From: Squalus acanthias
Taxonomy: Eukaryota
Direction: 5' to 3'
DNA length: 64,000 nucleotides
NCBI GenBank assembly: GCA_030390025.1
Contig: CM059431.1
Coordinates: forward strand, 148,244,001 to 148,308,000
The notes beneath the pieces were generated by a model, which saw nothing but the letters and a program-made list of their open reading frames with translations, was not told the origin of the DNA and searched no databases. A program made the position numbers and the translations under genes. Below, piece after piece: positions 6,601-24,839 of the stretch (positions within the stretch are counted from its first letter, which is position 1; each line of letters opens with the position of its first letter).

Positions 6601-8577
6601 CCCTTTAGATTACATACTTTAGAATTGACACGTGGTTAGGACCGGAGGGTGTGACTGTGAGTGAGGCAGGTACGGGGATCCAGGAGGTAGTATTGCAGGA
6701 GCCTCAGTCCCTACACTTGTCCAATATTTTGAGGTTCTTGCAACCCTTGTGGAGCAGTGTGGCGACTGTGGGGAGGACAAGCAAACTGACCACGGCACCG
6801 TGGAACAGGAAGACGTTCAAGTGGGGGGAGGGAAAAGGAAGGTGGTTGTAGTAGGTGACAAAATAGTTAGGGGGATAGACACTGTTCTCTGCAGCCAGGA
6901 GCGTGAGTCCCGAAGGCTGTGTTGCCTACCCGGTGCCAGGGTAAAGGACATCTCCTCTGGGCTGGAGAAGAACTTGGAATGGGACGGGGAGGATCCAGTT
7001 GTCGTGGTCCACGTAGGTACCAACTATATAGGTAGGACAAACAAAGTGCTTCTGCTGAGAGACTTTGAGAAGCTAGAGATAAATTAAAAAGCAGAACCAC
7101 AAAAGGCATAATCTCTGGATTATTACCGGAGCCACGAGTAAATTGGTATAAGGTCAATAGGATCAGGGAGATAAATGCGTGGCTCAAAGATTGGTGTGGG
7201 AGAAGTAGGTTTCGATTCATGGGGCACTGGCACCAGTACCGGGGAAAGAAAGAGCTGTTCCATTGGGACGGACTACACCTGAACCATGCTGGGACCAGAG
7301 ATCTAGCGAATCGAATAACTAGGGAGGTAGATAGGGCTTTAAACTAAATAAGGGGTGGGGGGAGGGTCCCGGTGGAGAGAAATCTAGAATGCTAAAGAGA
7401 AAAGACAAGGAAGCAGTGCAGGAAAGTGATTAGCGTAAGGGTATCCATGTTGTGTCAGGAAGGGACAGAGCGTACAAACAAAGGAAATCACTAACAAATA
7501 GGGTCCGGGTAAGAAAAAATGGTAATAAGACAAATAGGGCCAGAGTACAAAAAATGTTAAGATGTCTAAAAATGTTAAAAGACAAATCTAAAGGCACTGT
7601 ATCTGAATGCACGAAGCATTCGTAATAAGGTAAACGAATTAACAGCACAAAGAGATGTAAACGGACACGATATAATTGCGATTATGGAGACATGGCTGCA
7701 GGGTAACCAAGGCTGGGAGCTGAATATCCAAAGATATTCGATATTTAGGAAGGACAGGCAAAAAGGAAAAGGAGATGGGATGGCCTTGTTAGTAAAGGAT
7801 GAAATCAGAGCAATAGTGAGAAAGGATGTTGGCTCAGAAAATGAAGATGTAGAATCAGTCTTGGTGGAGGATAGAACACCAAGGGGCAGAAAACGTTGGT
7901 GGGAGATGTCTATAGGACTCCAAACAGTAGTGGTAATGTAGGGGATGGCAACAAACAGGAAATTAGAGATGCATGTAACAAGGGTAACTTTATTCTACAT
8001 ATTGACTGGCCAAACCTAATTAGCAATAATATTGTGGAGGATTAATTCCTGGAGTTGGTACGAGATTTTTTTAGACCAGTATGTTGAGGAGCCAACTAAG
8101 GAGCAGGCTATCCTAGATTGGGTATTGTGCAATAAGAAGGGGTTAATGAATAATCTTGTTGTGCGGGGTCCTTTAGGGAAGAGTGACCATAACATGATAG
8201 AATTCTTCATTAAAATTGAAACAGAAGAAGTCCAATTCGAAACTTGGGTCCTAAATCTAAACAAAGGAAACTACGAAGGTATGAGGAGTGAGTTGGCTTT
8301 GATAGATTGTGGAGCTTCATTAAAATGCATGATGGTATATAGGAAATGGCTAACATTTAAGGAACAAATGCATGAATTGCAACAGTTATACATTCCTTTC
8401 TGGCACAAAAACACAAAAGGAAAATCGGCCCAACAATGGCTGACAAAATAAATTAAGGATAGTATTTGATCAAAAGAGGATTCATATAAAATTGTGAGAA
8501 AAGTAGCAAGCATGGGAATTGGGAGCAGTTTGGAGCTCCGCAAAAAAGGTCCAAGAGATTGATTAAGAGGGGAAACT
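3699..8577 (+). mobile_element. Degenerate CR1 LINE: 5' UTR with ~322-bp monomers, ORF1 (Cys finger plus SGNH esterase, ~6410-7347), ORF2 endonuclease part, 3' truncated
   Basis: ORF1 motifs CCNMWE, CCLPGARVKDI, VVHVGTN, ending RALN*; ORF2 motifs ETWL and SDHNM; many stops and frameshifts. Confidence 0.88.
4016..5612 (+). mobile_element. 5'-truncated CR1 LINE (RT to 3' tail) inserted in the 5' UTR monomer of the 3699-8577 element
   Basis: QGSVLG and FADDTK motifs, (TTCTTATG)n tail, flanking direct repeat GTTAATTA at 4008-4015 and 5613-5620. Confidence 0.92.
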
Positions 8578-10330: not shown

Positions 10331-10457
10331 GAAGCGAATGAGGGAAAAGGCCAATTTCAGAAGTGAAACGTGGTTGATGGGGAAACGAGGAGTTTTGTTT
10401 TTTTGTTGATGTCTGTATTTCTCAAACTCGGCAAGTTCTCCCCTCTGACCCCCGCAG

Positions 10458-10558
10458 TTATTGGGAATGATTTCACATGCGGACTCTCGGGAGGGGAGCG
10501 AAAGAGAGCCAATATCGCCTGTGAATTTCTGTCAGACCCTGCGGTGTTGCTGCTGGAC
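10458..10558 (+). pseudogene. ABCG half-transporter exon (ABC signature and Walker B)
   Basis: cccgcag acceptor and gtaagt donor; IGNDFTCGLSGGERKRANIACEFLSDPAVLLLD. Confidence 0.92.
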
Positions 10559-10569
10559 GTAAGTCAGTC

Positions 10570-18829: not shown

Positions 18830-19785
18830 CCTCTTTTAATGAGATAGTCTCTCCATCAGGGACCCCTTTTAAAGAGGGAGTCTCTCCATCAGGGACCCCT
18901 TTTAAAGAGGGAGTCTCTCCCTTAAGAAGCTCAACACCATCCAGTACAAAGCAGCCCGCTTGATTGGCACCCCATCCACCACCTTAAACATTCACTCCCT
19001 CCACCACTGGCGCACAGTGGCTGCAGTGTGTACCATCTACAAGATGCACTGCAGCAACTCGCCAAGGCTTCTTCGGCAGCACTTCCCAAACCCGCGACCT
19101 CTTCCACCGAGAAGGACAAGGGAAGCAGGCGCATGGGAACACCACCACCTCCAAGTTCCCCTCCAAGTCACACACCATCCTGACTTAGAAATATATCGCC
19201 GATCCTTCATCGTCGCTGGGTCAACATCCTGGAACTCCCCTACCTAACAGCACTGTGGGAGTACCATCACCACACGGACTGCAGCGGTTCAAGTAGGCGG
19301 CTCACCACCACCTTCTCAAGGGCAACTAGGAATGGGCAATAAATGTTGGCATTGCCAGCGATGCCCTGATCTCATAAATGAATAAAAAAAAATCAGGGGC
19401 CCCTTTTAAAGAGGGAGTCTTTCTATCAGCAACCCTTTTAAAGAGGGAGTCTCTCCGTCAGGGACCCTGCTTAAAGAGGGAGTCTCTCCATCAGGGACCC
19501 TTTTTAAAGAGGGAGTCTCTCCCTCAGGGAGCCCTTTTAAAGAGGAAGTCTCTCCATCAGGGATCCCTTTTAAAGAGTGAGTCTCTCCATCAGCACCCCT
19601 TTTAAAGAGGGAGTCTCTCAGTCAGGGACCCTGCTTAAAGAGGTAGTTCCTCCATCTGGGACCCCTTTTAAAGAGGGAGTCTCTCCATCAGGGAACCCTT
19701 TTAAAGAGGGAGTCTTTCCTCCAGGGCCCCCTTTTAAAGAGGGAGTCTCTCCGCCAGAGACCCCTTTTAAAGAGGGAGTCTCTCT
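18830..19785. repeat. 33-bp tandem repeat (TTTTAAAGAGGGAGTCTCTCCATCAGGGACCCC), split by a LINE fragment
   Basis: Units at 18830-18920 and 19393-19785. Confidence 0.9.
18921..19392 (+). mobile_element. 3' fragment of the second LINE family (CR1 group, Zenon-like) with A-rich tail
   Basis: LNIHSLHHWRTVAAVCTIYKMHC; ends aatgaataaaaaaaaa; same family as 28620-30722. Confidence 0.8.
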
Positions 19786-19874
19786 TAGAAACATAGAATC
19801 TAGGAGCAGGAGTAGGCCATTCGGCCCATCGAGCCTGCTCCACCATTCAATACGATCATGGCTGATCCTCCAAT

Positions 19875-22827
19875 TCAGTATCCCGTCCCCGCCTTCTCTC
19901 CGTAACCCTTAACCCCTTTTGCCTGTAGAAATATATCTAATTCCCTCTTAAATATATTTAATGAGCTGGCGTACACTGCCCTCTGTGGCAATGAGTTCCA
20001 CAGGTTCACCACCCTCTGAGTGAAGAAATTCCCCCTCATTTCTGTCCTAAATGGTTTAGCCCTTATCCTTAAATTATGTCCTCTAGTTCTGTTCTCACCC
20101 GCCAAGGGAAACATTCCTTCTGCATCTAGTCTGTCTAGACCTGTCAGAATTTTATACACTTCTATGAGGTCCCCTCTCAATCTTCTAAACTCCAGTGTGT
20201 ACATCCCTAAACTACATAGTCTCTCCTCATAGGTCAATCCCGCCATTCCTGGTATCAGCCTGGTGAATCGCCGCTGCACCGCCTCCATGGCAAGAACATC
20301 TTTCCTCAGATGAGGCGACCAAAACTGTACACAGTACTCGAGGTGTGGTCTCACCAGTGCCCTGTACAGCTGCAGCAAGGTATCCCTGTTCCTGTATTCC
20401 AACCCTTTTGCTATGAAGGCCAGCATACCGTTTGCCTTCTTGACCGCCTGTTGCACCTGCATGCTCGCCTTCAGTGACTGGTGTACAAGAACACCCAGGT
20501 CTCTCTGTACTTCCCCCTCTCCCAATTTATTGCCATTTAAATAATAATTTGCCCTCCCGTTCCTGCACCCAAGGTGGATAACTTCGCACTTGTCCACATT
20601 ATAGTGCATCTGCCATTTATCCGCCCAATCACCCAGTCTGTCCAAATCGCTCTGGAGCTTCCTGGTCTCCTCCTCTGAGCCCACCCCCCCCTCCTAGTTT
20701 AGTGTCGTCTGCAAATTTGGAAATGCTGCATCCGACTCCCTGATCCAGGTCATTAATGTAAATTGTGAACAGCTGGGGACCCAGGACAGATCCCTGTGGT
20801 ACCCCACTTGTTACTGCCTGCCATTCAGAAAATGAGCCGTTTATTCCAACTCTCTGTTTTCTATCTGACAGCCAGTTCTCTATCCACGTCAATACTTTCC
20901 CCTTTATCCCATGAGCTTCAATTTTCCATGCTAATCTTTTATGTGGGACCTTGTCGAAGGCCTTTTGGAAGTCCAGGTACACCACATCTACTGGCTCTCC
21001 CCCATCTATTTTACAAGTTACTCCCTCAAAAAATTCCAATAGATTAGTCAAGCACGATTTACCCTTTGCAAATCCATGTTGACTCTATCCTATCCTGTCC
21101 CCATTTGCTAAGTGCTCCGCTATTTCATCCTTAATGATGGACTCCAGCATTTTGCCCACAACTGATGTAAGGCTTACAGGTCTGTAATTACCTGCTTTTT
21201 CCCTACCCCCCTTTTTGAATAGTGGGGTAACGTTAGCTACCCTCCAATCCATGGGCACTGTTCCCGAGTCTAATGAATTCTGAAAAATCATACTTAGTGC
21301 ATCCGCTATCTCTAGGGCCACCTCCTTCAGTACCCTAGGATGCATGTTATCAGGCCCTGGGGATTTGTCCGCCTTCAATCCCTTTAGCTTCCTTAACACC
21401 ATATCCTTCGAGATATTGATTTGCGTCAGTTCCTCCTTTGCCAATGTCCCTATTTTTCCCGATATCCCAGTGAGGTTTTTTGTGTCTTCCTTCGTAAAGA
21501 CGGACCCAAAGTATGCATTTAGTTGGTCTGCCATTACCTTATTTCCCGTTATATATTCCCCCGTATCTGACTGCAATGGACCAACTTTGGTTTTCACCAG
21601 TCTTTTCCTCTTGATATACTTATAAAAGCTTTTGCAGTTAGTTTTTATATTTTCCGCCAGCTTGCTTTCGTAAGCTATTTTGCCCCTCTTGATTAAGCCC
21701 TTTGTCCTCCTTTTCTCCATCTTAAACTGTTCCCAATCTTCCGCTCTGGCGCTTTTTTTGGCTATTTTATACGCCCTATCTTTGGATTTTATGCTGTCTC
21801 TAATTTCCCCTGTTATCCACGGTTGAGTCACCTTTTTAGATTTCCTTTTATGCCAGATTGGTAGAAACAATTTTTGCAATTTTGTCATTCTATCTTTAAA
21901 TACTTGCCATTGTTTATCTACCTCCAGTCCTCCCAGGAACGTTGTCCAATCAGACCTACTCAGTTCCCGTCTAATGGCATCATAATTCCCCTTGTTTAAA
22001 TTCAGGACCTTAGTCTCTGAGTCAATTTCTTCGCTCTCCATTTCGATTGAGAAATCGATCATGTTATGATCGCTCTGACCCAAGGGTCCCCGTACAACAA
22101 GATTACTAATTAGTCCCTTCTCATTGCACAGTACCCAGTCCAATATAGCCTGTTCCCGAGTTGGTTCCTCGACATATTGATCCAGAAAACCATCCCTTAA
22201 ACACTCAAGGAATTCCTCCTCCTCATTATTTTTACTGATTAGGCTAGTCCAATCTATATGTAAGTTAAAGTCACCTATGATGACAGCTGTGCTCTTATTG
22301 CACGCTTCTCTAATTACCCTCGTGATGCCCTCCCCAACCTCTATTTTACTATTTGGAGGCCTATATACCACTCCTATTAATGTTTTTCGCCCCTCGCTAT
22401 TTCTTAGCTCCACCCATATAGATTCTGTATTAACTGAGTTAATATCCTTCCTTTCAATTGCATTTATCCCCTCTTTTACCAGCAATGCTACCCCTCCTCC
22501 CTTTCTTTTTTGTCGATCCTTCCTAAATACTGAATACCCCTGTATGTTAAGCTCCCAGCCCTGCTCACCCTGCAACCATGTTTCCGTAATCCCAATTAGA
22601 TCATAATTATTAACCTCTATTTCCACAGCTAATTCATCTACCTTGTTCCTGATGCTTCTCGCATTAAGGTATAAAACCCTCAGGCTATTTTTATGCTCAC
22701 ATTTTTTATGAATTAGTTTGGCCCTTTGTTTTTTGTTCCTCACCCTTTTACCATTTATTGCTGTCTGCCTTTCACTTTCCTCTATTTCACTACATAGGTT
22801 TCTAGCCCCCTGCCATACTAGTTTAAA
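19875..22827 (-). pseudogene. CR1 ORF2 (APE endonuclease plus reverse transcriptase), one in-frame TAG (21085-21087) and one extra G in a homopolymer (~20684-20691)
   Basis: YLNARS, ITETW, GDFN, SDH, QGSVLGP, FADDTK; frame is open from the ORF1 overlap. Confidence 0.9.
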
Positions 22828-23765
22828 TGCTCCCGAACTGCTTTATCAAAAATTACCCCGAGAACATCAGTTCCATCTTTGCACAGGTGTAGACCGTCCC
22901 TTTTGTATAGGTCACACCTACCACAAAACTGGTTCCAATGCCTCAAAAATTTAAAACCCTCCCTCTTACACCACTGCTCAAGCCACGTATTTAGCCTAAC
23001 TATCCTGTTCTCTGTACTCTTACTAGCACGTGGTACTGGTAGTAATCCAGAGATTACTACCTTCGAGGTCCTACTTTTTAGCTTGGCTCCTAACTCCCTA
23101 AATTCTACTTGTAGGACCTTTTCCCTTTTTTTAGCTACGTCGTTGGTACCAACATGTATCACAACAACTGGCTGTTCCCCCTCCCCCTCCAGAATGTTCT
23201 GCACCCGCGCCGAGACATCCTTGACCCTTGCACCAGGGAGGCAACATACCATCCTGGAGTCTCGGTCGCGACCACAGAAAACCCTATCTATTCCCCTTAC
23301 AATCGAATCCCCTATTACTATAGCCCTGCCACTCTTTTTCCCTCCCTTCTTTGCAACAGAGCCAGTCATGGTGCCATGAGCCTGGCTGCTGGTGCCTTCC
23401 CCCGATGAGTCGTCCCCCCCGACAACAGCACCTAAGGCGGTGAACCTGTTGCTAAGGGAGACAACCCCAGGGGATTTCTGCACTACCTTCCTGCCCTTGC
23501 TCTGCCTTTTGGTCACCCATGTACTATCTACGCTGGCCTTAACCTGCGGTGTGACCAACTCACTAAATGTGCTATCCACAACCCTCTCAGAATCGTGGAT
23601 GCTCCAAAGTGAGTCCATCCGCAGCTCAAGGGCCGTCATGCGGTCCCACATGAGCTGCAGCTGGACACACTTCCCGCACACATGGTTGTCAGGGACACAG
23701 GAAGCGTCCCTGATTTCCCACATGTTACAGGAGGAGCATAACACAGGTCCGAGCTCTACTGCCAT
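22818..23765 (-). CDS. CR1 ORF1 protein (CxxC...CxxC finger, coiled region, SGNH/GDSL esterase), 315 aa
   Basis: CSSCNMWE...CGKC, IGDSIVRG, HVGTND, DGLHL. Confidence 0.92.
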   Translation of the reverse strand: MAVELGPVLCSSCNMWEIRDASCVPDNHVCGKCVQLQLMWDRMTALELRMDSLWSIHDSERVVDSTFSELVTPQVKASVDSTWVTKRQSKGRKVVQKSPGVVSLSNRFTALGAVVGGDDSSGEGTSSQAHGTMTGSVAKKGGKKSGRAIVIGDSIVRGIDRVFCGRDRDSRMVCCLPGARVKDVSARVQNILEGEGEQPVVVIHVGTNDVAKKREKVLQVEFRELGAKLKSRTSKVVISGLLPVPRASKSTENRIVRLNTWLEQWCKREGFKFLRHWNQFCGRCDLYKRDGLHLCKDGTDVLGVIFDKAVREHLN

Positions 23766-24051
23766 GACTTAACCCTTATATTACTTTTTAATTTTCTAGT
23801 TTTAGTTTATTTATTGACTTTTGTTTTCCCGAAGCTTACTTAGACCAATGTATACTGTACTCCTCTTATTCCTTTTTAAACTAACCAAATCCCACTAGTT
23901 TTAGTTTTACTTTCTAGGAAGGTTTGAGGAAAGTACTTACCAGTTAGTCTTACCTCCCTGGTCTTTCGCTGACTTCCCGGTCTTGTGTCCCCTTGGTCCT
24001 ACGCCGACTTCCCGCTCCTCGCGGTAACCGTCCTGCCCTGCTGAAAAGAAA

Positions 24052-24578
24052 CTCCGGTCTCGTCGCTCCCGACAACAGCCTGTGAAGAAAAGCCCGCGAA
24101 AGTGAGTTCAAATACTCACAGCACCTCACAGCACCTCCGGTCTCGTTGCTCCCGACAACAGCCTGTGAAGAAAAGCCCGCGAAAGTGAGTTCAAATACTC
24201 AGCGCACCTCACAGCACCTCCGCTCTTGTCGCTCCCGACAACAGCCTGTGAAGAAAAGACCGCGAAAGTGAGTTCAAATACTCACAGCACCTCACAGCAC
24301 CTCCGGTCTCGTCGCTCCCGACAACAGCCTGTGAAGAAAAGCCCGCGAAAGTGAGTTCAAATACTCACAGCACCTCACAGCACCTCCGGTCTCGTCGCTC
24401 CCGACAACAGCCTGTGAAGAAAAGCCCGCGAATGTGAGTTCAAATACTCACAGCTCCTCACAGCACCTCCGGTCTCGTCGCTCCCGACAACAGCCTGTGA
24501 AGAAAAGCCCGCGAAAGTGAGTTCAAATACTCACAGCACCTCACAGCACCTCCGGTCTCGTCGCTCCCGACAACAGCC
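24052..24578 (-). repeat. 83-bp tandem monomers (6 full plus 1 partial) at the LINE 5' end
   Basis: Near-identical units starting at 24052, 24135, 24218, 24301, 24384, 24467, 24550. Confidence 0.95.
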
Positions 24579-24839
24579 GAATAGGCTGATGTGGAATTGC
24601 AGAATCCCGATCATTGGCCAGAACAATTCCTTCGTTTTATATAGTTCAGACTCTCAATACTGATGTATTATTGGAACACAAAAAAGGGACTTCCTTCACT
24701 GTAACACTCTGATATAACCCACAACAATCACTGTAGCACTCTGATATCCCCTACACTTCTCACTGTAACACTCTGACATTTCCCACATCCAAAATGTAAC
24801 ACTCTGATATACCACACACCCAAACTGTAACACGGATAA

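Follow-up and report, generated by a model that had tools for sequence, protein, structure and literature searches.

In CR1 LINEs whose first open reading frame (ORF1) encodes an esterase, a conserved slippery heptamer immediately precedes the ORF1 stop codon. We consider it likely, with a probability that we put at roughly 0.87 from sequence comparison, that programmed -1 ribosomal frameshifting at this site yields the endonuclease and reverse transcriptase (RT) of these elements, in the form of a predicted ORF1-ORF2 fusion. We came to this reading from one element in a 64,000-nucleotide stretch of the Squalus acanthias genome (GenBank assembly GCA_030390025.1, contig CM059431.1, positions 148,244,001 to 148,308,000), referred to below as the window, and from its comparison across ten lineages, made up of six subfamilies from the same genome and four elements from metagenomes. 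The heptamer, its register, the adjoining stop and the open -1 frame are all present and are conserved at the nucleotide level. On this basis, the recoding signal is real, deeply conserved and probably functional.

A young CR1 element with an esterase ORF1

The element lies on the minus strand of the window (Table 1), and it belongs to a young family, with near-identical copies at 99 to 100% in the 3.7-Gb genome. Its 5' edge was placed at ~24600, where the match to a sister copy (L002) starts, and its 3' tail stops at ~19784. The ORF1 product combines a zinc finger with an SGNH esterase, and ORF2 combines an APE endonuclease with an RT, which is the arrangement described for vertebrate canonical CR1 elements with a type IV esterase ORF1 (PMC4120745, PMC13343379). 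By eye, ORF1 also contains a coiled-coil-like stretch; the profile of its family matched PDB entry 4c1b (E = 7e-46), and the closest named ORF1 proteins are those of a shark (66 to 69%). ORF2 is broken in this copy by a premature stop at 21087-21085 and a frame change near 20690.

Several other features were seen in or near the element. The tandem array in its 5' UTR is possibly a tandem internal promoter. At the opposite end, a minisatellite (19392-19784, 12 copies of a 33-nt unit) abuts the CR1 3' end, and the 3' UTR contains a stem (19800-19850, minus strand) whose two arms change together in subfamily B and which we take to be the likely RT recognition hairpin. A probable ABC transporter exon is found at 10367-10561 on the plus strand (PF00005, E = 6e-5, narrowly short of the cut-off).

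Table 1. Positions of CR1 features in the window
Feature	Position	Strand	Remarks
CR1 LINE copy, full length, young, ORF2 defective	~24600..19784	-	99-100% copies; tail end
5' UTR tandem array, 83-nt unit, 6.3 copies, CpG-rich, 96% match	24052..24578	-	
ORF1, 315 aa, Cys-pair zinc finger and SGNH esterase	22818..23765	-	PF13472, E = 1.2e-10; conserved cysteines
Slippery heptamer T_TTA_AAC, predicted -1 shift site	22821..22827	-	
ORF1 stop codon, immediately 3' of the heptamer	22818..22820	-	TAA or TAG in 10/10 lineages
Linker from shift site to endonuclease, stop-free in the -1 frame	22669..22820	-	
G-rich tract, candidate 3' stimulator	22801..22814	-	Conserved distance from the heptamer
ORF2 part 1, APE endonuclease and start of RT region	21085..22827	-	PF14529, PF03372
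ORF2 remainder, reverse transcriptase and C terminus, in two frames here	19875..21084	-	PF00078, E = 6.6e-19
Identical heptamer and stop in a second, older CR1 copy from another subfamily	7338..7347	+	

The ORF1-ORF2 junction in the window copy

When the junction was re-read, it agreed with the sequence-only reading that had drawn attention to it. ORF1 ends in CAT TTA AAC TAG, with the heptamer in the X_XXY_YYZ register before the stop, and ORF2 occupies the -1 frame, which is free of stops from 22842 to 21085 on the minus strand. A G-rich tract begins 6 nt past the heptamer. The GTG at 22743 is present, and the first in-frame AUG, at 22062, comes only past the SDH motif (22074), with the other endonuclease motifs checked (22668-22146) likewise 5' of it. 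The claim that the endonuclease has no preceding AUG therefore stands for the window copy, but it fails as a general rule, being true in only 5 of the 10 lineages, and the argument from the missing AUG is weaker than first claimed because it is not general across lineages.

The heptamer, stop, and -1 frame are retained among genomic copies

The own-genome set consisted of 145 loci, of which 135 had both anchors, the ORF1 catalytic motif and the endonuclease start, and were scored, while the other 10 were dropped. Two of the searches behind this set were queried with junction-containing DNA, which favors copies that keep the junction, and the other three used proteins; with this composition, the exact heptamer followed by TAA or TAG was found in 132 of the 135 scorable loci, across six subfamilies (A to F) that align at ORF1 DNA scores of 54 to 84%. 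The remaining three loci have point changes within the heptamer. The endonuclease lies in the -1 frame in 109 of the 132 heptamer-bearing copies, and many of the 23 that are out of frame belong to subfamily D, an old group with a long G run of variable length; in the main cluster of this subfamily, 14 of 26 copies are out of frame. Typical distances from the stop to the endonuclease in the six subfamilies are 137, 179, 179, 242/245, 116, and 116 nt, all of which are 2 mod 3. Starting from the heptamer, the -1 frame is open for 997 codons in one copy (L173) and 975 in another (L177); upstream of the heptamer it is open for merely 1 to 37 codons, and for a single codon in subfamily D. Two copies, L158 and L167, have an extra G in the run before the heptamer, which places ORF1 in frame with ORF2 and gives reading frames of 1290 and 729 aa, respectively.

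Distant elements carry the same or another heptamer of the slippery type

Seven further loci came from metagenomes, and four of these could be scored. L111 stops short of the junction, and in the degenerate loci L115 and L116 the site is altered. The metagenome ORF2s are 39 to 42% identical to one subfamily C ORF2. The heptamer is G_GGA_AAC in L110, T_TTA_AAC in L112 and L113, and G_TTA_AAC in L114, and in all four elements it is followed by a stop and then by a -1 frame that is open into the endonuclease, at stop-to-endonuclease distances of 191, 107, 101, and 125 nt, again all 2 mod 3. The ORF1 of L113 has a premature stop six codons before the heptamer. In the published description of slippery sites, the consensus is X_XXY_YYZ with GUU as a listed exception, and both G_GGA_AAC and G_TTA_AAC fit the consensus or this exception (PMC3542737). 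We regard the switch of heptamer class as the strongest sign that selection has acted on slipperiness rather than on the encoded peptide.

The seven metagenome loci (L110 to L116) and a number of unnamed esterase ORF1 proteins fall into clades separate from the named vertebrate ORF1s; the type IV esterase ORF1 has been reported from vertebrate subgroups only (PMC4120745). No relative was found in the viral contigs scanned, and in prokaryotic genome contigs the only matches, to bacterial esterases at 22 to 29%, were set aside.

Nucleotide conservation at the end of ORF1 exceeds coding need

For a codon-level comparison, the last 165 ORF1 codons of the ten lineages were aligned, on a DNA base of one vertebrate genome and four metagenome contigs, with other vertebrates represented as protein only. 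A single residue occupies 29 columns in at least 9 of the 10 lineages, and 27 of these columns use two to four codons; the only ones written with one codon are the final Leu (TTA in 9/9) and the final Asn (AAC in 10/10). Elsewhere in the alignment, TTA accounts for 24 of 150 Leu codons and AAC for 30 of 64 Asn codons. The pre-stop site is a canonical heptamer in 9 of the 10 lineages and of the GUU type in the tenth, compared with in-register canonical heptamers at 6 of 1,610 other ORF1 codon positions. In the linkers of the ten lineage representatives (that of subfamily D was picked because it is in frame), stops were found at 0 of 572 codons in the -1 frame and numbered 26 and 87 in the other frames. 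The site has a heptamer in zero-frame register, an overlapping open -1 ORF, and more constraint on its nucleotides than the encoded protein requires. Synonymous changes are absent from the final Leu and Asn codons, one slippery class of heptamer is exchanged for another between lineages, and eight different linker lengths all preserve the -1 frame; this comparison supports the gag-pol-like ORF1-ORF2 fusion proposed in the sequence-only reading, which we continue to infer from sequence.

The protein record extends these observations. From 227 ORF1 proteins, 161 reach the catalytic motif and 102 were left after near-duplicates were removed, and 39 of the 102 end in Leu-Asn, with named sources that include sharks, rays, frogs, sturgeon, lizards, a snake, turtles, and a swallow. 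Codons for Glu, Lys, Gln, Met, and Trp cannot end in T, and the residue preceding the terminal Leu-Asn is one of these five in 0 of 39 proteins, versus 50 of 273 nearby positions (P = 9e-4, an optimistic value because the lineages are related and the protein rows are not independent). Among the 63 tails that end otherwise, 9 end in Gly-Asn, and in one clade Lys-Asn occupies a comparable position, followed by a tail that varies. QGN, SGN, xKN, GF, FL, or FF is found at the end of distant ORF1s or within them, as would be encoded by other heptamers. A heptamer-compatible tripeptide occurs in 42 of these 63 tails (56/631 positions versus 296/8,629 upstream, for a tail interval chosen post hoc), and the other 21 have none, some of them being inside the Gly-Asn clade, with EN, SN, SG, or RG ends.

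A sister clade of 11 rows (support, 99; one Astyanax member) has neither a Leu-Asn nor a Gly-Asn end and is a natural negative control; the grouping comes from a quick esterase tree used for this purpose only. Its members have a DGLHP motif in common with 4c1b, presumably the zebrafish L2 element ZfL2-1, and the clade looks like L2. Some database entries also deserve mention. The gene models of P0037 (stingray), P0074, and P0119 run from the esterase into Phe-Lys-Leu, which is the -1 reading of the heptamer. Long fused ORF1-ORF2 proteins were not found among 8,000 candidates, which is weak evidence. Entry P0008 is a CR1 ORF1 (58% identity) that the database assigns, from a contig of 4 kb, to Pseudomonas aeruginosa as a hydrolase; it is most likely host contamination.

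A G-tract, and no shared local stem, follows the heptamer

Counting from the heptamer, G is found in 8 to 10 of the 10 lineages at +8, at +11 to +14, and at +18, and a G-tract spanning +8 to +20 is present in all ten despite differing -1 frame peptides. We sought a stimulatory stem-loop 5 to 9 nt downstream and found no lineage-shared fold that beats shuffled sequences: 60-nt segments past the site gave fold z-scores of -0.99 to +1.58 in the ten lineages, no better than shuffles, and among 100-nt segments one of ten fell below -2 (z = -2.1), with no stem common to the lineages. Because a structured stimulator was sought and not found, we do not class the heptamer site as a canonical -1 signal. 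The local folds were computed both with G-quadruplex terms and without them; a G-quadruplex entered the best fold in 3 of the 10 lineages only (C, D, and F, and not in that of the window's own element) and is not claimed. Long-range partners fared no better, as a duplex scan of the available element parts gave nothing clearly above G-rich controls, and recurring matches to the RT region and 3' UTR were likewise no better than those controls. One 3' UTR stretch that had been considered as such a partner was rejected, having a local partner of its own that covaries with it in subfamily B. A minority of known 3' stimulators start 12 to 15 nt from the shift site and may be linear, and those that have been characterized act with trans-acting factors (PMC5009743).

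Other explanations for the junction

It is possible in principle that ORF2 is made separately, by termination-reinitiation or from a non-AUG start in the style of SART1 and human L1, and that the heptamer serves some other role. ORF1-dependent unconventional initiation has been described for both of those elements (PMC2881922, PMC3708506, PMC5009743), an AUG lies 1 nt past the ORF1 stop in subfamilies A and B and in some C copies, and an in-frame AUG falls within the linker or where the endonuclease begins in D, G, I, J, and most B copies, which makes 5 of the 10 lineages. However, ORF2 is in a different frame from the AUG beside the stop, so that the in-frame AUG of a SART1-type junction is missing there, the positions of the in-frame AUGs vary among lineages, and the GTG at 22743, conserved in subfamily B, is absent at that place in C. 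Reinitiation requires no fixed -1 frame, no single codons, and no switch of slippery class, and it explains neither the codon fixation nor the switches, so we consider separate synthesis of ORF2 unlikely.

We give even less credence to RNA processing, in which splicing or polymerase slippage would bring ORF2 into frame. Two splice-donor-like sites were noted by eye in the 5' UTR before ORF1 (about 23955-23930, minus strand), and the TAG after the heptamer could act as an acceptor in subfamily A, but the stop is TAA in five of the six own-genome subfamilies, which therefore keep no AG acceptor, and the sequence 3' of the junction is purine-rich. In three probable RNA runs, no joint at the junction or at the 5' UTR donors was seen among the matches listed, which is weak evidence since only contigs were available and their RNA status is a guess; no piece among these matches spans the junction by 31 letters on each side, and run X12 barely covers the stretch. 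As for slippage by a polymerase, the rare genomic copies with one extra G before the heptamer (L158 and L167) are in-frame fusions, but the runs of identical bases at the site are only three or four long. Marginally less probable again is that Leu-Asn-stop is kept for protein function and that its slippery look is a by-product. In favor of this, all 24 aligned ORF1s have the Asn, but protein selection does not fix codons, and the final Leu and Asn are the only 2 of the 29 conserved columns with one codon. In addition, the base preceding these two codons obeys the heptamer rule, Leu-Asn is replaced by Gly-Asn or Lys-Asn in other clades, and the solved relative 4c1b does without it.

A model for ORF2 expression and its precedents

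Under programmed -1 frameshifting, most ribosomes would stop at the end of ORF1 and release ORF1p, and a minority would slip one base back on the Leu and Asn codons, bypass the stop, and continue through the linker into ORF2, so that slippage would set a low ratio of ORF2p to ORF1p, as in gag-pol. The fusion product would be ~1,290 aa, and the natural copy with an extra G, L158, has an open frame of that length. The weakest and most speculative step concerns the pause, which may be due not to a pseudoknot but to the adjoining stop together with a G-tract that is single-stranded where it meets the mRNA entry channel; the G-tract would then be protein-bound or quadruplex-forming. In its broadest form, the proposal is that esterase CR1 elements across animals make the fusion by a new, previously undescribed type of -1 signal, consisting of the heptamer, the adjoining stop, and a G-tract that lacks structure and works by way of a bound protein or a quadruplex, and that this signal has been kept in jawed vertebrates and distant relatives. 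We offer this wider proposal tentatively, at slightly less than even odds.

U_UUA_AAC is the coronavirus frameshift site, and in some retroviruses the heptamer is immediately followed by a stop. With the viral -1 sites (coronavirus 1a/1b, retroviral gag-pol and pro-pol, and the arterivirus GUU variant), CR1 shares an in-register X_XXY_YYZ heptamer (PMC3542737), as well as overlapping ORFs, a polymerase gene in the -1 frame, and a conserved element just 3' of the site. It differs from them in that its host is a non-LTR retrotransposon, in having a G-tract instead of a predicted stem-loop or pseudoknot, and in that the stop directly adjoins the heptamer in all ten lineages.

Among LINEs, the ORF2s of Dictyostelium TRE5-A and TRE3-A need a -1 frameshift according to a legend in a review (PMC5911963); these are L1-type non-LTR elements that differ from CR1 in clade and in ORF1. 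Human L1 and silkworm SART1 resemble CR1 in having a bicistronic LINE RNA, and their ORF2 depends on ORF1 translation, but they produce a separate ORF2p by reinitiation or unconventional initiation and no fusion. In Drosophila HeT-A, a frameshift occurs in gag (PMC5009743), so that it too is a non-LTR element with recoding; unlike in CR1, the shift is within gag, and no reverse transcriptase is encoded. The word "frameshift" is absent from the main text of three CR1-focused papers (PMC4120745, PMC13343379, and PMC11303007), and in the portion of the literature covered we found no report of CR1 frameshifting; an overlap or frameshift may already be noted in Repbase or in the early work on CR1 from chicken and turtle. 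What appears to be new here is the -1 frameshift reading for CR1, its LINE precedent being the review statement on TRE5-A and TRE3-A.

Significance

A recent survey names the CR1 group as the dominant retrotransposon of most vertebrates at the species level (PMC13343379), and the translation of ORF2 in two-ORF LINEs was called unclear in 2013 (PMC3708506). A conserved -1 frameshift would be a precise and cheaply testable answer to how CR1 makes ORF2p. The recoding field would also take an interest in a cellular frameshift signal that is widespread and has no evident RNA structure. If the reading is correct, annotations that begin ORF2 at an internal AUG or GTG are wrong, ORF2p carries the zinc finger and esterase of ORF1p, and the fusion could bring ORF2p into the ORF1p particle in the way that Gag-Pol enters a virion.
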